A stretch of DNA of 62,748 nucleotides from a virus. A program made the position numbers and the translations under genes. Within the stretch, counting starts at the first letter, position 1; the number at the start of each line of letters is the position of its first letter. The notes beneath the pieces were generated by a model. That model was not told the DNA's origin, made no database searches, and saw only the letters and a list, made by a program, of their open reading frames with translations. Where the stretch lies: positions 1 through 62,748 of the IMG/VR virus record IMGVR_UViG_3300037096_000044, one strand, 5' to 3'. Of this stretch, positions 43,574 to 54,849 are shown in pieces.

Positions 43574-44815
43574 CTAGCGCCTGGGCCCAGCGACGCGATG
43601 ATTGCGCGCGGAAGCTCTCAGGCGCGTCACGGCGCGTTCAAGCTGTTGGTCATAGTCATCGGCCCACGCAACGGCGGCTTGTTCCTTATGCTCTACGATG
43701 GCCTGTCCGATGGCGCACCCGAGCGCGGCCGGCACCGCATTCCCTATCTGCATGTACTGAGAACTCATTGAGCCGCTGAATTTCCAGTCCGGCGCGAAGC
43801 CTTGAATGGCCGCGCATTCACGGACTGATAACGGTCTGACGACTTCGGGATGGCACAGTGCGCTCCCCTTGCGATTGGCGCGTCCGGTGATCGTCGGGGC
43901 CGGACGATTCCATGCGAGCCGACGATAAAATCCGGTCTTGCCGCCGCCCGCCGCGAAGGAACCGCCCATAGCCTTGCGTTGAAGTTTTCGCGGCAGCGAA
44001 CGCCAATTGCCGCCTTCCGGAACAAGCGCAAAATATTGTTCCACGTCCGGCGTATATTTTGCGCCTTTGCCGGGACGGCGTCGAAACTTCCAGATTTCAT
44101 CTTTCAGCACTCGGTAAGGCAGGAGCGCCGATGGACCATGCGTCGCCGACGGCAGTACAGGCGGCGAAAAATCGCGGGCACCAATCATCACAAACCGGAG
44201 ACGGTGTTGGGCCGCGCCGTAATCCGCAGCATCAAACACGCCGAAGGTCACGAAATATCCGAGGCCGCGAATGTCGGCGAGGATTTGGCGTACTGCCGAT
44301 CCCGACAATTCGTCCTCACTCAGCGGAGCATGATCTTCGTCGCCGCTGAGCCAAGAATGATCGTAAGTCTTAAGGCTCCAATGCTGACCCGGACGCTCGG
44401 AAATTGGCCGGTGACGGAGTGCGGCTGTCGTCAGATTAGCCACGTTTTCAAGGACAAAGCGGCGCGGTCTGACTTCGCCGATTAGGCGAAGATACTCATA
44501 GATCAAATTGCCGCGAGGATCGGTTAGGGCCGCCCGTTTGCCGCCGGGCGAAAAACTCTGGCATGGCGGGCCGCCGACCATCAAATCGACTTCGCCTTTG
44601 AAGCCACGGGCTTTGCGCAGCTTGTCGGCGTCAAGGCTCGCGATGCTGTCGCTGATAAGCTGGACGGACGGTCTGTTCAGCCGGATCGTTTCGCAGCAAT
44701 CGAAATCAATCTCATTCACGAGCGTCGGGAATATCCCGGCCTTCTCTAGTCCGAGATCGAGACCAAGCGCCCCTGAGAAAAACGACCAAACCTCTGGTTT
44801 TTTCGCGCGTGCCAT
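43574..44815 (-). CDS. dcm: DNA (cytosine-5) methyltransferase.
   Basis: Motifs are FSGALGLDLG (I), GGPPCQSFS (IV), LENV (VI), AQHRLRF (VIII) and GNAVP (X). Confidence 0.9.
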   Translation of the reverse strand: MARAKKPEVWSFFSGALGLDLGLEKAGIFPTLVNEIDFDCCETIRLNRPSVQLISDSIASLDADKLRKARGFKGEVDLMVGGPPCQSFSPGGKRAALTDPRGNLIYEYLRLIGEVRPRRFVLENVANLTTAALRHRPISERPGQHWSLKTYDHSWLSGDEDHAPLSEDELSGSAVRQILADIRGLGYFVTFGVFDAADYGAAQHRLRFVMIGARDFSPPVLPSATHGPSALLPYRVLKDEIWKFRRRPGKGAKYTPDVEQYFALVPEGGNWRSLPRKLQRKAMGGSFAAGGGKTGFYRRLAWNRPAPTITGRANRKGSALCHPEVVRPLSVRECAAIQGFAPDWKFSGSMSSQYMQIGNAVPAALGCAIGQAIVEHKEQAAVAWADDYDQQLERAVTRLRASARNHRVAGPRR

Positions 44816-49203: not shown

Positions 49204-49370
49204 GGCGTCATCACCGGGCCGAACGCGGAAGAGGCGTTGTTACCATCGGACCGTTTTCAGGCTTAAGGAAACTCGGAAGGGCTATGCGTCGCGGTAAAGT
49301 CCCTCCAGAGCGACAGGTCATTATTGATACCGCGATGAAAAAAGCCAACGAAAGGAAATCCAATGGCTAA
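49200..49370 (+). CDS. Small basic protein (56 aa), tentative.
   Basis: MRRHHRAERGRG... ATGA overlap upstream, and its stop overlaps the next start. It is below the track cutoff. Confidence 0.3.
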   Translation: MRRHHRAERGRGVVTIGPFSGLRKLGRAMRRGKVPPERQVIIDTAMKKANERKSNG

Positions 49371-50202
49371 GGCGACAGCAAAACCTACCGGACGTGCAAT
49401 AGCGAAGACCGGAGGCGGCGGAGTTCCCGCCCACCTTCAAAAAGTCAAGATGAGTGGAGCGGGAGTATCGACCGATACCTCCGATCTATTGATCCCGATG
49501 TGCCGCATCCTCCAACCGATGTCCCCGGAGGTCCAAAAGCGCGGCGCGACGTATATTAAAGGAGCCGAGCCGGGCGACATCTATATCAAGAACGCCGCCA
49601 ACCCGGTTCTTAAGGGCGAGGATGGTTTTCTCTTTCAGCCTTGCTACTTCTCGAAGGGCATTGTTGAGTGGCTACCGCGCGATAAGGGCGGCGGCGGCGG
49701 CGGCGGGTTCGTAATGTTGCACAAGGAGGAACCGGCGGACGCAATATCCGTTCCGAACCCGCAGAACCCGGAGCGCACCATGCGTATCCGGAAGAGTAAC
49801 AAGAATATCCTCGTGGAGACGCGATACCACGGCGGTTTCATTATCACCGACGGAACCCCGATGCCGGCCGTTATTCCCTTCGCTTCATCCGGGCACACCG
49901 TATCAAAGGCTTGGATGATGCTTATGAACTCGAAGATGGTATCGGGGGTGAAGGCCGACAGCTGGGCGGTCTATTACCGCTTCAAGACGAAGCTGAAGAC
50001 GGTCGGCCCGAATACGTGGTCCATCTTCGAAATTACAGATGGTGGGGAGGAAGACGAAGACGGCCTTCCCTCTACACTGTGGGTCCCCACGCTTGAAGAC
50101 TATGAGCGCGGCGCGGCGCTCGGTAAGTCGCTAGCGAGCGGCGCTCAACGCTTCGACGCAGCGGCAGCGGGCGACGAAGCCGCTGACGATGAGAAGATGT
50201 AA
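49363..50202 (+). CDS. Hypothetical DNA-metabolism-module protein with a Gly7 tract and an acidic C-terminal tail (possible ssDNA-binding or annealing role).
   Basis: 279 aa ending in AAGDEAADDEKM. The function is a guess from context and the acidic tail. Confidence 0.4.
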   Translation: MAKATAKPTGRAIAKTGGGGVPAHLQKVKMSGAGVSTDTSDLLIPMCRILQPMSPEVQKRGATYIKGAEPGDIYIKNAANPVLKGEDGFLFQPCYFSKGIVEWLPRDKGGGGGGGFVMLHKEEPADAISVPNPQNPERTMRIRKSNKNILVETRYHGGFIITDGTPMPAVIPFASSGHTVSKAWMMLMNSKMVSGVKADSWAVYYRFKTKLKTVGPNTWSIFEITDGGEEDEDGLPSTLWVPTLEDYERGAALGKSLASGAQRFDAAAAGDEAADDEKM

Positions 50203-50210
50203 AGGTCAAA

Positions 50211-50238
50211 GGGGAAACCCAATTGGGTTTCCCCTTTC
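50211..50238 (+). terminator. Rho-independent terminator.
   Basis: Perfect palindrome GGGGAAACCC-aatt-GGGTTTCCCC followed by ttt. Confidence 0.8.
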
Positions 50239-50347
50239 AGCTTCCGGTAGAAGAGGCGTTTCATCGGTGGGCGCGCCTCCCTCCTTCTGGCAGGTCACTC
50301 GGACCGGCACCTGTGGAAGAAAGCCGGTCCACCTAATTTAATGGATA

Positions 50348-50712
50348 CATGCTTATCCGGTTGCCACACACAGGAGCTAGATCATGAGCGGCTTGACGGA
50401 AGAACAGCTTGACGCACTAGGCATAAAACGGCCTGAAATCCCGGCCGACACGGTGGAGCACCAAGTGACGCCATCACAGCGGGCCTACGGGCTTCTGTGG
50501 CGCACATTTACGGACCTGCCGTTTGTTCACATGGCGCGCCGCGAATTGTTTGAGGCGCTGTCAAAAGAGGAACGGTATGCCGGGATCGCGTGGGCTATCG
50601 AGAAGTACGGCACCATGCCAACGCAGCAAATGATCGCTGCCGATATACAGGTCGGCCAGTTCCCCGAAAAATCCTACGGATAGTAGCTGTGTGTCTAAAC
50701 CGGATAAGCATG
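50348..50712 (+). mobile_element. Inverted-repeat-bracketed cassette 1 (365 bp), flanked by an 8-bp direct duplication AATGGATA.
   Basis: The L end is 50348-50373 (CATGCTTATCCGGTTGCCACACACAG). The R end is 50687-50712 (CTGTGTGTCTAAACCGGATAAGCATG). AATGGATA occurs at 50340-50347 and at 50713-50720. Confidence 0.7.
50384..50683 (+). CDS. Cassette 1 cargo: hypothetical 99-aa protein.
   Basis: RBS caggag lies at the inner edge of the L repeat. The stop is 4 nt before the R repeat. Confidence 0.6.
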   Translation: MSGLTEEQLDALGIKRPEIPADTVEHQVTPSQRAYGLLWRTFTDLPFVHMARRELFEALSKEERYAGIAWAIEKYGTMPTQQMIAADIQVGQFPEKSYG

Positions 50713-50713
50713 A

Positions 50714-50959
50714 ATGGATATGACAATGGCAGATGATCAAGCGCTTAGGATCGATATAAAACCGGGTGATGATGGCGGTGTCCCGACTGACCGCGAAAAG
50801 GCATCCCAGTACCGAACGAAGGCGACCATCCAGCTAACATCGCTTTGTAAGCTTCTCGATGAAGCGAAGGCGGACGGTTTCATCATCTCTTACGGAACCG
50901 GCGACAATGCTCAAGGCGAACAGGCCATCACCAAACTCGACATCTCGTTTGCGCCATGA
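50714..50959 (+). CDS. Hypothetical protein.
   Basis: Its ATG lies inside the right copy of the AATGGATA duplication. Confidence 0.5.
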   Translation: MDMTMADDQALRIDIKPGDDGGVPTDREKASQYRTKATIQLTSLCKLLDEAKADGFIISYGTGDNAQGEQAITKLDISFAP

Positions 50960-51135
50960 TAGTCCGTGAAGCCGGGTTAATCATCTTCAACTGCGACAAG
51001 TGTTCCGACTTCGTGGAGACGGAGGAGCGCGGCTTCGAGGAAGCGAAATTAAAGCTCGATGCTGAGAAGTGGCACGCCGTCCGCGTCGGACTAAACTGGG
51101 AACAGATTTGTCCGTCTTGTTGGAGCAAGTTATGA
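50956..51135 (+). CDS. Small CxxC...CxxC zinc-ribbon protein (59 aa).
   Basis: Sequence is MIVREAGLIIFNCDKCSDFVE...ICPSCWSKL, with ATGA overlaps at both ends. Confidence 0.45.
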   Translation: MIVREAGLIIFNCDKCSDFVETEERGFEEAKLKLDAEKWHAVRVGLNWEQICPSCWSKL

Positions 51136-51824
51136 CCGCCGAAGTAGCGTTATCGGTTCGTGAACAAATCCTAGCGTTGTGGCCCGATCACACCGGGCCG
51201 GAGATTGAGGCTATGTTAGCGAAGGAGTTGGGTTCGGCTAAACCGCGCTACATCTTTGGCGTAGTGCGGCGGGCACGAAGACGCGGCGACGCTAGAGCCA
51301 TCGAGAAACCGAAGGGGAAGATGAGCGAGTGGACGAAGGAGAGTAAGGACCGGCTGCGCGAACTCGCCGCGCCGGGCCACGATACGCTTAGCGATTATGA
51401 TATTGCGAATATCCTTAATAAAGAGTTTGGTACATCCTTCTCCCGTAATGCCATAATCGGAATGCGTGGAAGGATGCTACTTTTTAAGGCGCGGAAAGAA
51501 AGAAAACATCATGCGCGTGGCGAGTATCGCCCGCGCGCCATCCTTCAGCCGAAGGATAAGCCGGGCCAGAATTTGAATTTTCATTCTTGGCGCTCGCCTA
51601 AGCCGTCTAAGCCTCCAGTTCTTGTAGAGCCGAAAGAAGCTCAACAAGGTTTCCCGTATCGGGCGAGCCTTCTTGAGCTTAACAATTCGACTTGCCGGTG
51701 GCCGGTGTGGCCTCACTTCGTCGATCCTCCGGACCGCGAATATTTCTTTTGTGGCGAGCCGAGCGCGGACCTCGGAGCATCGAAACCATATTGTCCCTAT
51801 CACACGTCCCAATCGAGAGGCTAA
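51132..51824 (+). CDS. gcrA: GcrA-like cell-cycle/transcription regulator with a duplicated N-terminal HTH-like module.
   Basis: The N-terminal module is MSEWTKESKDRLRELAAPGH...SRNAIIGMRGRM, and an upstream copy reads REQILALWPDHTGPEIEAMLAKELG...IFGVVRRARRRG. The C-terminal signature is CRWPVW...FFCGEP...KPYCPYH. Confidence 0.7.
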   Translation: MTAEVALSVREQILALWPDHTGPEIEAMLAKELGSAKPRYIFGVVRRARRRGDARAIEKPKGKMSEWTKESKDRLRELAAPGHDTLSDYDIANILNKEFGTSFSRNAIIGMRGRMLLFKARKERKHHARGEYRPRAILQPKDKPGQNLNFHSWRSPKPSKPPVLVEPKEAQQGFPYRASLLELNNSTCRWPVWPHFVDPPDREYFFCGEPSADLGASKPYCPYHTSQSRG

Positions 51825-51938
51825 TACCATGGTCCTTAGATCGCGCATCGGCGTGATGGAGCCGGTAGGTATGTTGGTTGCTCTCCTACCTAAAGGCGCG
51901 ATTTGAGGGGCAACTCCTTGGCTGGGAGCCATAAATAT

Positions 51939-52664
51939 CATGCTTATCCGGTTGCCACACACAAACGCTGAGACCTACTAGATGTTGATGCGAACAAAAC
52001 CCAAAGCTCTTGACCTTTTCTGCTGTGCCGGCGGCGCGGGAATGGGCTTGTGGCAAGCCGGATTTGAGGTTGTCGGTGTTGATATTGAGCCGCAGCGCCG
52101 CTATCCGTTTGAGTTTCATCAAGCCGACGCTATGACGTTTCCGCTGGACGGCTTCGATTTCGTTTGGGCAAGTCCGCCTTGCCAAGGCTACAGCCATCTG
52201 ACGCCTAAAGATGCAAAAAAGAGATGGGTCAAGCTAATTCCGGCCATAAGGGCGCGCTTAGTCAAAGCCGGAGTGCCGTATTGCATCGAGAACGTGGTGG
52301 GTGCCCGCCAACAACTCGTAAGGCCGTGCCTGCTTTGCGGCTCCATGTTTGGCCTTCGGACACAACGACACCGGCTTTTTGAAACATCGTTTTCGACCGC
52401 TCCTCCAAGAACGTGCGACCACAGCCAAATTCCGCTGCTCGTCACTACAGCCAGCAAAGCGAGCCGAGAGAAGCGTTTTAAGTTGGGAATGCCCCCAAAG
52501 ACGGTAAAAAACGCCCCCCTAGCCTACGGAATTGATTGGATGGATTTCAACGGACTGAAAGAGGCGATACCACCCGCTTACGCCAAGTTCATCGGAACAG
52601 CCGCAATGGCATATATCAAACAGACACAAGCTGTAGGGCTGTGTGTCTAAACCGGATAAGCATG
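51939..52664 (+). mobile_element. Inverted-repeat-bracketed cassette 2 (726 bp).
   Basis: The L end is 51939-51963 and the R end is 52640-52664. Its inner L and R extensions are shared with cassette 3. GAAGGATT follows the R end at 52665-52672. Confidence 0.65.
51982..52650 (+). CDS. Cassette 2 cargo: compact DNA (cytosine-5) methyltransferase (222 aa).
   Basis: Contains DLFCCAGGAGMG (I), ASPPCQGYS (IV), IENV (VI), TQRHRLF (VIII) and a short target-recognition region. The last codons and the TAA stop lie inside the R repeat. Confidence 0.75.
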   Translation: MLMRTKPKALDLFCCAGGAGMGLWQAGFEVVGVDIEPQRRYPFEFHQADAMTFPLDGFDFVWASPPCQGYSHLTPKDAKKRWVKLIPAIRARLVKAGVPYCIENVVGARQQLVRPCLLCGSMFGLRTQRHRLFETSFSTAPPRTCDHSQIPLLVTTASKASREKRFKLGMPPKTVKNAPLAYGIDWMDFNGLKEAIPPAYAKFIGTAAMAYIKQTQAVGLCV

Positions 52665-52877
52665 GAAGGATTACCCCGGACCATGCGAAACATCATCGGA
52701 GGCGATATGCTCTTTTGGAGGCCGGAAGGCCCGCAACTAGAATACCGCGATCGCACGTTTTTCATTGCCGACCTCAATCCTGAGATTGAGATTAGGTGGG
52801 CCGTGACGCCGCGCCAGCTTCTCGGCATCGGCTTCAAGTGCATCGCCGCCGCAACCCGTTCCCTCTTGTCACTTTAG
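52662..52877 (+). CDS. Hypothetical protein (alternative start 52683).
   Basis: The first ATG is the terminal ATG of the cassette 2 R repeat. Confidence 0.45.
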   Translation: MEGLPRTMRNIIGGDMLFWRPEGPQLEYRDRTFFIADLNPEIEIRWAVTPRQLLGIGFKCIAAATRSLLSL

Positions 52878-52884
52878 GCCCAAA

Positions 52885-53106
52885 ATGAACCCGGATCAGA
52901 CCATCAACCTAAATCAGAACGCCGCCGACTGCATCAAGGCAGCCAGCAAATTCGGTGAGACGATCTACACCAATATCTGCAACGGGAATGTTTCTCACGT
53001 TGCATGGGGCGGCGTCGATTGGCTTGCCATGATAGGCATATCGAGCTTTGGCCTAGCCTTCACGGCGCTGCTTTTCAGCTTCGCGATTATGGTCATTCGA
53101 GATTGA
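52885..53106 (+). CDS. Small membrane protein.
   Basis: C-terminal hydrophobic segments WLAMIGISSFGLAFTALLFSFAIMVI. Confidence 0.5.
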   Translation: MNPDQTINLNQNAADCIKAASKFGETIYTNICNGNVSHVAWGGVDWLAMIGISSFGLAFTALLFSFAIMVIRD

Positions 53107-53112
53107 AGGATT

Positions 53113-53471
53113 CATGCTTATCCGGTTGCCGCACACAAACGCTGAGACCTACTAGATGCTGAGGGCACTATGAAGATCATCGTTAACGGCGAGCCGCACG
53201 AATACGCGCACAAAAAGATAGGCTACGACGAGGTCGTTAAGCTGGCGACCGGCAAAAACTCGCAAGAACTGACGGTTACCTATTTTTGGCGCAGCCATCT
53301 GCATGATTTGACCCGCAACGGTTCGCTTTCGCCGGGTGTTTGGAAGCCCAGGAGCCTTGGCAATCTTCGCAAGACAATCGAGGTTGCCGAAGGCATGGAG
53401 TTCACCGCAGTTTGGACAGGTGCAGCGTGACCACAAGATGTAGGGCTGTGTGTCTAAACCGGATAAGCATG
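53113..53471 (+). mobile_element. Inverted-repeat-bracketed cassette 3 (359 bp).
   Basis: The L end is 53113-53137 (one A-to-G change) and the R end is 53447-53471. GAAGGATT precedes the L end at 53105-53112. Confidence 0.65.
53170..53430 (+). CDS. Cassette 3 cargo: beta-grasp (ThiS/MoaD/multiubiquitin-like) small protein.
   Basis: Contains MKIIVNGEPHEYAHKKIGYDEVVKLA...TVTY...GMEFTAV. There is no C-terminal Gly-Gly. It is preceded by a 5-codon uORF (MLRAL) whose stop overlaps this ATG. Confidence 0.45.
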   Translation: MKIIVNGEPHEYAHKKIGYDEVVKLATGKNSQELTVTYFWRSHLHDLTRNGSLSPGVWKPRSLGNLRKTIEVAEGMEFTAVWTGAA

Positions 53472-53544
53472 AATGGGATGGTTGGTGGCCCGCTGATGTT
53501 GCGGCGTAAACCGTCGAACTCCTGATGAATAAGGAAACTGGAAC

Positions 53545-53703
53545 GTGATCGACAACTGGCATGGCAAGCCTATCGGCGATCTCACGCGCGGCGAACTTAT
53601 TGACGCGCTAGAGTGGTGTGTCGGAAAACTGCGCGAATACCAACTCACCGAATTACGCCGAGCAACAAACCCATTGCGCGGACTTCCTCTGGAACGGAAA
53701 TGA
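53545..53703 (+). CDS. Small hypothetical protein (52 aa, GTG start).
   Basis: RBS aaggaa lies upstream. It is below the track cutoff. Confidence 0.3.
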   Translation: MIDNWHGKPIGDLTRGELIDALEWCVGKLREYQLTELRRATNPLRGLPLERK

Positions 53704-53722
53704 AACTGAAGGAGTTTTTGTC

Positions 53723-54649
53723 ATGACCATTGACATCATCGGAGCCGGGTTGGCCGGACTTCTCGCCGGCAATATGCTAAGCCACCGTCACCCAATCATC
53801 TCGGAGGCGCAGCCAACGTTGCCGAATAATCACAGTGCAGTATTACGCTTTAAGACATCCTCTGTAGGAGATGTCTTGAATATTCCCTTCCGTAAAGTGA
53901 CGATGGTAAAGACCGCGCTGCCTTGGCTCAATCCGGTCGCGGATGCTCTCGCGTATTCTCGTAAAAATACAGGAATAAGCCGAAGCGACCGCTCGATTAT
54001 CGCCGGCACCGTTACCGAGCCGCGTTGGATCGCACCGCCGAACCTTATATGGCTGATGGCGGAACGACTGACTATTTCTTATAGTCAGTCGTTTCTTTTT
54101 AAGGATAAGGAACGAGGCGAGAATTGGCGTCCGACCATTTCCACCATACCGATGCCGACGCTGATGAAGCTCCTCAACTATCCGAAGGCCGATCAGTTTA
54201 AGTTTAGCGGAACAGCAGGAATGAATATTAAGGCACGCCTCTTTAATTGTGATGCCTATATTTCGCTCCTCGTTCCGGACGAAAATTACATCTTTTCCCG
54301 CATCTCGGTGACAGGAGACGAAATGATTGTTGAGTGTCCAGTTGCGGAGGATATTTACGGCGATATATTAAACATCGCTATTGATGCTGCTGAGCTTCTT
54401 GGGCTAGAGGTCGATGGTAAAACGCTCTCTCATCATCAGCAAAAATATGCGAAAATCAATCCGCTCGAAGACGATGAAGCCCGCAAGGATTTCATTTATT
54501 GGGCGACCGATCAACACGGCATCTTTTCGCTCGGCCGCTTCGCGACGTGGCGGCCGCATCTCCTCTTGGATGACCTCGTTCAAGACATCCGGTTGATCGA
54601 CAAGTGGATTGAGAAGAAAGACCGATATGCCATAGCGAGGAGCCGATGA
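53723..54649 (+). CDS. FAD/NAD(P)-binding Rossmann protein (UDP-galactopyranose mutase / amine-oxidase-like fold).
   Basis: MTIDIIGAGLAGLLAG matches GxGxxG, and the C-terminus has SLGRFATWRPHLLLDDLVQDI. RBS gaaggag lies upstream of the ATG at 53723. Confidence 0.5.
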   Translation: MTIDIIGAGLAGLLAGNMLSHRHPIISEAQPTLPNNHSAVLRFKTSSVGDVLNIPFRKVTMVKTALPWLNPVADALAYSRKNTGISRSDRSIIAGTVTEPRWIAPPNLIWLMAERLTISYSQSFLFKDKERGENWRPTISTIPMPTLMKLLNYPKADQFKFSGTAGMNIKARLFNCDAYISLLVPDENYIFSRISVTGDEMIVECPVAEDIYGDILNIAIDAAELLGLEVDGKTLSHHQQKYAKINPLEDDEARKDFIYWATDQHGIFSLGRFATWRPHLLLDDLVQDIRLIDKWIEKKDRYAIARSR

Positions 54650-54849
54650 ACCCCGGAACCGTCTTCCTAGTCGCCTGTGTCTCGTGCGGGCTTCTTATCT
54701 ACATCGCTGGCTTTATCAATGGCACTTATCTCTATGGTCAATGGAACAGCGAACGGCTGCGCGCTATGGCCGTCGCCGGTTATACCGTTATCGAAGTCCG
54801 CACCTACCGGCTTCTTGACATCACGCCGAAGGTGGAGGAGAAGCTATGA
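54646..54849 (+). CDS. Small membrane protein.
   Basis: Hydrophobic segment VFLVACVSCGLLIYIAGFINGTYLY. Confidence 0.45.
   Translation: MNPGTVFLVACVSCGLLIYIAGFINGTYLYGQWNSERLRAMAVAGYTVIEVRTYRLLDITPKVEEKL

Follow-up and report, generated by a model that had tools for sequence, protein, structure and literature searches.

Gene-carrying units of an uncultured tailed phage bracketed by IS1595-family ends are probable non-autonomous mobile insertion cassettes

Here, we analyze a viral contig of 62,748 nucleotides, IMG/VR record IMGVR_UViG_3300037096_000044 (positions 1 to 62,748; this whole stretch is referred to as the window), in which three short units at 50348-50712, 51939-52664, and 53113-53471 are each bracketed by copies of one inverted repeat. 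The repeats, left (L) and right (R), represent the terminal inverted repeats on either side of an insertion sequence (IS) of the IS1595 family. It is very probable that units 1 to 3 are non-autonomous cassettes derived from such an IS, i.e., mobile insertion cassettes (MICs). IMG/VR contigs are predicted viral sequences, and all evidence presented here is comparative.

The six repeat copies share the consensus CATGCTTATCCGGTT(GCC/TAG)RCACACA, with GCC in the L copies and TAG in the R copies. The window contains the 15-mer CATGCTTATCCGGTT six times, namely at + strand positions 50348, 51939, and 53113 and at - strand positions 50698, 52650, and 53457, which places the R ends at 50688-50712, 52640-52664, and 53447-53471. 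In shuffled sequences, the 15-mer is expected 0.09 times and the 25-nt form 0 times. An original prediction, made from the letters of the window alone, had reported six copies of about 25 nt at these positions and none elsewhere. The 15-mer search agrees with this, and an end profile applied at maximum sensitivity found no seventh copy in the 62,748 bases. The pairing of each L end with the next R end around a fixed triplet was likewise confirmed: the arms pair over 25 to 29 nt with 84 to 88% complementarity and the GCC/TAG triplet between. ORF calls also agree with the predicted single + strand gene per unit and the unit lengths of 365, 726, and 359 bp, each unit containing one substantial + strand open reading frame (ORF), of 99, 222, and 86 amino acids, respectively. 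The reported extended likeness between units 2 and 3 amounts to 51 nt at 96% identity for the L ends and 45 nt at 93% for the R ends, their cargo being unrelated.

Target-site duplications had escaped the original prediction. Unit 1 (50348-50712, + strand) is flanked by the 8-mer AATGGATA, which stands directly before the left inverted repeat (50348-50372) at 50340-50347 and, as a perfect 8-bp direct repeat, directly after the right inverted repeat (50688-50712) at 50713-50720. The left repeat continues via a GGAG ribosome-binding site to an ATG at element position 37, and the cargo gene (50384-50683, + strand) encodes a 99-amino-acid protein which, as anticipated, has no family match. A copy of unit 1 with 98% identity over exactly the element (window 50348-50714) was found in locus L004 (12174-11808), and the unit is also present, likewise at 98%, in the Logan contig L121. 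In a three-way alignment of these sites, similarity begins and ends at the termini of the element, and the flanks are unrelated. The duplication is AATGGATA in the window, AAATATAG in L004 (in window orientation), and TTTCATTT in L121. The same cassette thus occupies different loci with different target duplications, as expected of the mobile rather than fixed element that had been postulated. The reconstructed empty site of unit 1 had no exact match in IMG/VR, and its right flank had no match in JGI metagenomes.

The original prediction also anticipated further copies, and these are numerous. An exact scan of IMG/VR with the 15-mer matched at least 119 stretches, and loci were added by exact subtype ends (44 stretches for the GCC-type end and 55 for the TAG-type end). 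Nearly every 15-mer match listed extends to CATGCTTATCCGGTT-nnn-RCACMCA, and many are convergent pairs a few hundred bases apart. Among the matches listed, we counted 115 distinct convergent paired elements of 184 to 2253 bp in 179 viral loci. Perfect 8-bp direct repeats lie directly outside the termini of 82 of these 115 viral elements and repeats with one mismatch outside those of 5 more, the chance of a perfect 8-bp repeat being about 1.5e-5 for one pair. The 58 perfect duplications of the first set of loci vary between sites and reveal a palindromic target preference, R-W-W-N-N-W-W-Y. The GCC/TAG subtype, to which the units of the window belong, comprises 33 elements of 305 to 927 bp with 28 unrelated cargo families, which bears out the notion of one chassis with interchangeable cargo; its duplications are perfect over 8 bp in 20 elements, contain one mismatch in 2 more, and differ in sequence by site. 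In bacterial contigs from several phyla, the same terminus bounds plain ISs of 1005 to 1093 bp, miniature transposable elements with inverted repeats (MITEs) of 101 to 250 bp, and a few cargo forms, and perfect 8-bp repeats were detected in 18 of 22 bacterial pairs.

The assignment to IS1595 is supported by the transposase found between the same ends. Members of 1.6 to 2.3 kb contain, inside such ends, a gene for a protein of roughly 345 amino acids. In L108, this protein matches Zn_ribbon_IS1595 (PF12760, 1.8e-13), DDE_Tnp_IS1595 (PF12762, 8.2e-35), and the NCBIfam model transpos_IS1595 (NF033547), and its counterparts of similar length in L056, L022, L036, L071, L015, L106, L086, and L072 are 57 to 81% identical to it. 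The plain ISs in bacterial contigs also match the IS1595 transposase. An 8-bp duplication is the hallmark of the IS1595 family, which is further characterized by a single transposase with a zinc ribbon and this DDE domain (PMC8101967). The closest named relative of the transposase is that of ISAcr1 from Acidiphilium (64% identity), whose ends, read from pACRY03 as CCTTGCCTATCCGGTTGACTCCCATACCTACTAGAT.. with an inverted partner, are of the same type. Common to ISAcr1, other IS1595 ISs, and the family described here are the end type ..TGCnTATCCGGTTgaC.., the subterminal CTACTAGAT, the 8-bp duplications, and, in autonomous relatives, the zinc ribbon and DDE_Tnp_IS1595 domains; the three copies in the window differ in lacking a transposase. 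The ISfinder end consensus of the ISSod11 group, nnnGcnTATC, presumably fits the family ends as well and is regarded as a lead only.

A link between cassettes and transposase-bearing forms is provided by the cargo of unit 2. This 726-bp unit (51939-52664, + strand) has a left end at 51939-51988 with a GAGA ribosome-binding site and an ATG at element position 44 (51982). Its cargo (51982-52650, + strand) is the C5 DNA methyltransferase of 222 amino acids that had been recognized from the translation, now substantiated by a match to Pfam C-5 DNA_methylase, and its right end (52620-52664) includes the last 8 cargo codons and the TAA stop. In L090, the same ends enclose a cargo protein 60% identical to that of unit 2, within a target-site duplication of GAACATTT. 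In L022, the order is left end, methyltransferase, transposase, right end, and the passenger is 51% identical to the unit 2 cargo. This arrangement is the expected precursor form of the cassettes, a "transporter IS". Passenger genes are known from IS1595 transporter ISs (Siguier et al. 2009, as cited in PMC3129680; PMC8101967), and in the phage-borne members of 1.6 to 2.3 kb passengers similarly lie between the left end and the transposase gene.

The flanks of units 2 and 3 may record an action of the transposase on the ends of neighboring cassettes. Unit 3 (53113-53471, + strand; 359 bp) has a left end at 53113-53162 with the conserved ATG at element position 44 (53156). This ATG opens an upstream ORF of 5 codons, MLRAL (53156-53173), whose TGA overlaps the ATG of the cargo (ATGA, 53170-53173); the cargo (53170-53430, + strand) is an 86-amino-acid protein matching Pfam Multi_ubiq, and the right end spans 53427-53471. 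Between units 2 and 3 lies a + strand segment (52673-53104) with two small genes, of 64 amino acids (52683-52877) and 73 amino acids (52885-53106). The flanks of unit 2 differ (ATAAATAT on the left versus GAAGGATT on the right), as do those of unit 3 (GAAGGATT versus AATGGGAT), and the right flank of R2 (52665-52672) is the same 8-mer as the left flank of L3 (53105-53112). In the JGI metagenome contig L244, the genes for the 64- and 73-amino-acid proteins occur in the opposite order with a single GAAGGATT between them, the surrounding sequence being identical at 34 of 34 positions to that left of L3 and at 38 of 40 positions to that right of R2. By this alignment, GAAGGATT in L244 is an empty, uninterrupted site, and the two copies in the window are therefore the halves of a single transposition footprint, i.e., of one target-site duplication. 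Relative to L244, the gene order in the window is permuted, with a new junction near 52872-52884, TTTAGGCC/CAAAATG, that coincides with a TTAG(G/C)CC microhomology visible in L244.

We propose that the ancestral order was unit 2, the gene for the 73-amino-acid protein, GAAGGATT, the gene for the 64-amino-acid protein, and unit 3, with ordinary duplications of ATAAATAT around unit 2 and of AATGGGAT around unit 3. The transposase may then have paired the inner ends R2 and L3, a valid right-end/left-end pair, excised the spacer between them, and inserted these ends into GAAGGATT inside the released spacer. Such an inside-out event would yield R2, GAAGGATT, the 64-amino-acid gene, the 73-amino-acid gene, GAAGGATT, and L3, with the outer flanks kept, the gene order permuted, and a repair junction joining the old spacer ends. 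In this single step, every flank of units 2 and 3 would be accounted for, while at least three events would be needed by a tandem-duplication route or by excision and reinsertion through recombination between cassette ends. Simple unequal crossing-over or inversion between copies, worked through by hand, does not appear to reproduce the observed flanks and gene order. Look-ups with flank and junction sequences in IMG/VR and JGI metagenomes did not retrieve the predicted precursor: nothing in IMG/VR matched the sequence flanking R3 on the right, and nothing in JGI metagenomes matched the occupied GAAGGATT|L3 junction. L244 itself carries a different cassette (49-799) encoding a C5 methyltransferase of 227 amino acids, with its right end (776-799) immediately upstream of the 73-amino-acid gene, and a further family end at 1823-1847. 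Relatives of this phage region are hit by cassettes repeatedly.

The ends of the GCC/TAG subtype include translation signals. Its left end is conserved over about 50 nt, CATGCTTATCCGGTT GCC RCACACA AACGCTGAGNNNTACTAG ATG TTG A, and in 19 of the 33 elements, unit 2 included, the cargo ORF starts at the ATG at element position 44, so that unrelated cargo proteins begin with Met-Leu. In other elements of the subtype, a stop codon or a mini-ORF comes after this ATG, and the cargo has a start of its own behind a new ribosome-binding site. Unit 1 has a shortened left end, in which GGAGCTAGATC leads into an ATG at position 37. At the right end, conservation extends over about 45 nt and covers TGA, TAG, and TAA, which lie 41, 28, and 14 nt away from the terminus. 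The ORFs of 8 elements out of the 33, again including unit 2, read into the right end as far as the TAA, and therefore unrelated proteins, among them a C5 methyltransferase, a NADAR protein, and a radical-SAM-like protein, share the tail ..TQDVGLCV. This TAA is formed by the very TAG triplet that distinguishes R from L. Across the wider family, positions 16 to 18 are variable, with GAC as the commonest triplet, which suggests that they are dispensable for recognition by the transposase; in the GCC/TAG subtype they seem to have been fixed as a stop codon. The L/R asymmetry may thus reflect an R triplet that supplies an in-frame TAA stop and an L end that carries the ribosome-binding site and start codon. 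Cargo would then be expressed from signals borne by the ends, the ribosome-binding site on the left (with the start codon in most elements) and the stop codons on the right. A scan of 50100-53800 gave no sigma-70-like promoter, no + strand terminator at the ends, and one terminator-like site, on the - strand.

As a working inference, we assume that the cassettes are mobilized in trans by a related phage-borne or host IS. An IS1595-family zinc-ribbon/DDE transposase, supplied by an element of a co-infecting phage or by a host IS, would bind both ends and move the segment into RWWNNWWY targets, duplicating 8 bp; in the cassettes, its gene would have been replaced by one accessory gene. The occurrence of unit 1 at three sites and the empty site in L244 lend indirect support to mobilization in trans. 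The shared ends of 45 to 51 nt could in addition act as portable homology and as paired transposase substrates, rearranging their neighborhood. Hosts hold ISs with the same 15-nt terminus. An autonomous partner had been predicted, and this was correct insofar as elements with the same ends encode an IS1595-family transposase, but none of the exact GCC/TAG subtype was found. The subterminal sequences of transposase-bearing elements from phage contigs are of the ACCCA or ACATRCA type; no element catalogued combined a transposase gene with the ACACACA type found in the GCC/TAG subtype.

Several observations weigh against this interpretation. The 62.7-kb window encodes no transposase: in a tblastn search with two IS1595-type transposases, the best E value was 1.8. 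This is in keeping with the original prediction that none lies in or near the units and makes units 1 to 3 non-autonomous. The GCC/TAG subtype reaches 927 bp at most, none of its 33 elements could fit a transposase, and no cognate autonomous partner was found for it. Matching flanks are absent from 11 of the 33, units 2 and 3 included, so that movement or reshuffling by recombination must also occur. The search for presence/absence polymorphism, which had been suggested at the outset, gave the empty site in L244 but no close relative in which units 1 to 3 are present or absent at orthologous positions. The catalogue, seeded by an exact 15-mer, is biased toward well-preserved ends, and movement as such is read from the comparison of contigs.

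A different candidate mobilizer was considered. An IS1595-type gene coding for 309 amino acids adjoins GCC/TAG cassettes in L010, L070, L076, and L029; the L010 gene (10043-10972; L246) has 153 relatives in viral contigs (L247-L325 among the loci), and no inverted repeats of its own were recognized. Its role as a general mobilizer of the cassettes is unsupported, considering that family ends lie within 10 kb in only 10 of 80 relative loci, and it may represent a transposase that has been domesticated. A 22-nt motif, GGGAATTATATACTTGACTCCC, which is absent from the window, stands in inverted copies near this gene in several loci and looks like a phage promoter or operator.

It could be argued that the elements are recombination cassettes, whose 45- to 51-nt ends serve as portable homology and whose transposon ancestry is a fossil, with homologous recombination as the main means of movement. 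ORFs bracketed by the T4 PeSL modules shuffle in this manner (PMC2839356), and the missing partner, the lack of a transposase in the window, and the missing matching flanks described above, including those of units 2 and 3, would all find an explanation. The same applies to a GCC/TAG cassette in L349 (2099-2524), whose 8-bp flanks, ATATACAT and ATGTATAT, are mutually reverse complementary. In L010, a related cassette is flanked by ATGTATAT on either side, and this suggests an inversion in L349 via recombination between oppositely oriented copies. However, no duplication can arise at a new site through homologous recombination, and movement by recombination alone therefore fails on the site-dependent duplications of the subtype (20 perfect and 2 with one mismatch), on the occurrence of unit 1 at three unrelated sites with its own duplication at each, and on the GAAGGATT pair, which represents a transposition footprint. 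We regard this explanation as improbable; recombination is probably a second process, acting on transposed copies and adding to their reshuffling.

A function at the RNA level is less probable still. L and R would form a long-range stem in a read-through transcript, for processing (e.g., by RNase III) or translational control, and would owe their conservation to this function; the predicted RNA fold of unit 1 is indeed closed by the 15+8-bp L/R stem (-154 kcal/mol, z = -4.9). The co-orientation of the three units with the surrounding + strand genes would suit such a role, as would the lack of a sigma-70-like promoter in 50100-53800, given which expression would depend on read-through transcripts. 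Yet any terminal inverted repeat folds in this way in silico, no Rfam match to a known RNA family was obtained, and the same ends bracket transposase genes as well as non-coding bacterial MITEs, with 8-bp duplications. Moreover, family ends occur in both orientations relative to neighboring genes in other contigs. An effect on RNA could be a side consequence of the ends and does not explain their distribution. Finally, mis-threading of a repeat during metagenomic assembly has next to no weight as an explanation. It is true that the window is a metagenomic contig (JGI/IMG) and that an independent short-read assembly of the same phage (Logan SRR13689538; L120/L122, L245) is broken where the repeats lie, with one contig of 38 kb that stops within R1 and one of 1279 bp that consists of the R1-L2 segment. 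However, ends with site-specific duplications recur in more than 100 independent contigs obtained from many samples, as well as in genomes of bacterial isolates and on plasmids, which excludes an artifact for the elements themselves, and diagnostic positions distinguish L2 from L3 and R2 from R3. Mis-threading could nevertheless have affected the order of units 2 and 3.

Among known systems, the cassettes correspond most closely to those defined along with MITEs and transporter ISs in PMC3129680. MICs, such as the IS231-based MIC231 known from the Bacillus cereus group (De Palmenaer et al. 2004, as cited in PMC3129680), consist of IS inverted repeats around one or a few passenger genes, lack a transposase, produce the target duplication of the parent IS, and are presumed to be mobilized in trans, and this is the configuration found here. 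An autonomous IS1595 copy would encode its transposase, whereas the units of 359 to 726 bp are filled by unrelated ORFs. The description as a MITE-like gene carrier was accurate with respect to a non-autonomous element with cargo but not to the MITE definition, which demands non-coding elements: each unit is filled by an ORF of 86 to 222 amino acids, and two of these have Pfam matches. The present family differs from MIC231 in its parent (IS1595, not IS4), its phage carriers, its dozens of cargo types, and its cargo ORFs, many of which take their start codon from the left end and their stop codon, together with up to 8 codons, from the right end.

The original prediction named the mycobacteriophage mobile elements (MPMEs) and the T4 early-promoter/stem-loop (PeSL) cassettes as nearest precedents and noted that neither has this architecture; in this respect it was wrong, since MICs and transporter ISs provide a known precedent. 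MPME1 and MPME2 resemble our cassettes in being ultra-small, with inverted repeats and one small ORF, and polymorphic among related phages (PMC3029335). Their content, of about 439 bp, is fixed, a 6-bp addition stands at IR-L in place of a target duplication, and in the account cited neither cargo variation nor a link to a known transposase family is apparent (PMC3029335). The elements described here are not MPMEs, with a subtype range of 305 to 927 bp (359 to 726 bp in the window), variable cargo, an 8-bp duplication, and IS1595 ancestry. PeSLs comprise an early promoter and terminator stem-loops, act as direct repeats in homologous recombination, and give rise to mini-circles (PMC2839356, PMC4122927). 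They are alike in that short motifs bracket single non-essential ORFs in variable phage regions and in that recombination shuffles the modules (PMC2839356, PMC4122927). In our case, the motifs are inverted transposon ends with target duplications, and no sigma-70-type promoter was found, which sets them apart from PeSLs. All three kinds of element occupy one niche, that of lone accessory ORFs within phage regions that vary. In concept, the cassettes are also similar to integron cassettes, which are promoter-less single-gene units with interchangeable cargo on a standard chassis. Integron cassettes have a fixed platform, at which attC sites and a tyrosine recombinase are employed, in contrast to the DDE-transposon ends, dispersed insertion, and 8-bp duplication seen here. 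In the open-access literature searched, no description of this cassette family was found. Thus, the kind of element is already known, and the family is apparently undescribed; its phage setting, the size of its radiation, the start and stop codons in its ends, and the footprint of the transposase on neighboring cassettes appear to be new.

In deposited phages, a megablast search of window positions 49300-54700 returned no match, the 50-nt L end and 45-nt R end gave chance-level matches only at E values up to 10, and the family ends were not found in any of 50,697 deposited phage genomes. Of the unit 2 DNA, only the methyltransferase coding sequence was matched in these genomes, and the transposase protein found two faecal contigs only, at 25 to 27% identity. 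A flanking protein of 279 amino acids had no relatives in IMG/VR, and exact-protein look-ups identified only the same phage in the Logan assembly (fragmented at the repeats) and L244.

Most of the cargo is without annotation, and DNA-modification functions are prominent in the remainder. In the whole catalogue, Pfam matches related to DNA modification include N6/N4, D12-class, Dam-family, and C5 DNA methyltransferases as well as Mom; others are NADAR, MazG-like, radical-SAM-like, crAss001_48-like, DUF3307, Multi_ubiq, and one TnpB. Dam and C5 methyltransferases and NADAR occur within the GCC/TAG subtype, Mom and MazG-like proteins elsewhere in the family, and a PAPS-reductase-like cargo protein scored below Pfam's threshold. 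The prominence of DNA modification fits counter-defence, which the cargo may serve.

It is tempting to speculate that these elements, instead of being occasional IS debris, constitute a dedicated phage gene-cassette system. Its standard chassis, which would provide a ribosome-binding site, a start and a stop codon, and ends bound by the transposase, would be moved in trans by IS1595 transposases of phage or host, would be a main vehicle for the exchange of accessory and DNA-modification (counter-defence) genes among alphaproteobacterial phages of soil and freshwater, and would lead to genome remodeling when the transposase acts on neighboring ends, as proposed above for units 2 and 3. We consider this broad proposal possible but rather doubtful; if true, phages would have their own equivalent of the integron cassettes. 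In phage genomes, insertion sequences are regarded as rare, and the gain and swapping of small accessory genes by phages ("morons" and counter-defence genes) is usually credited to recombination that is illegitimate or uses short homology. Here, at least 28 unrelated genes of a single subtype lie within a defined transposon chassis, in phage contigs from many metagenomes, and with ends, target preference, and candidate transposases at hand, this route of phage gene flow is directly testable. The ends provide annotators with a 25-nt marker for mobile cargo in viromes and, at about 95 nt in total, might make compact natural cargo vectors from a little-studied DDE family. The cassettes will also fragment phage genomes in routine virome assemblies.

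The window itself belongs to a tailed phage, as indicated by genes for a portal, a terminase, a prohead protease, RcGTA-like tail proteins, and a DnaE-type polymerase, and units 1 to 3 lie within the early-gene region of this uncultured phage. A GcrA-like gene is located between units 1 and 2 (51132-51824), in agreement with the alphaproteobacterial host that we infer for the phage. In Alphaproteobacteria, GcrA works together with DNA methylation, and the methyltransferase cargo may thus interact with phage regulation. A second, full-length C5 DNA methyltransferase of 413 amino acids is encoded on the - strand at 43574-44815, outside any cassette. About 100 nt upstream of unit 1 and directly after the gene for the 279-amino-acid protein, which is Pam3_Gp34-like, a perfect GC-rich hairpin, AAAGGGGAAACCCAA/TTGGGTTTCCCCTTT, is followed by T residues (50202-50243). 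It looks like an intrinsic terminator, and unit 1 would accordingly open a new transcription unit or need read-through.

Unusual arrangements of ends were seen in other contigs. In L125 (6344-6476), from a Terriglobia metagenome-assembled genome, three end copies are arranged head to tail with 59-bp spacing, and in L097 (1421-1470) part of the R end is duplicated as a direct repeat (..TAGACACACATGCTTATCCGGGTTAGACAC). In the viral contig L052, an element of 1156 bp (1253-2408) with IS1595-type ends and a perfect duplication of ATATCAGA carries as its sole cargo a TnpB of 367 amino acids (Pfam OrfB_IS605 and Cas12f1-like TNB), placing the gene for an RNA-guided nuclease inside the ends of another transposon.

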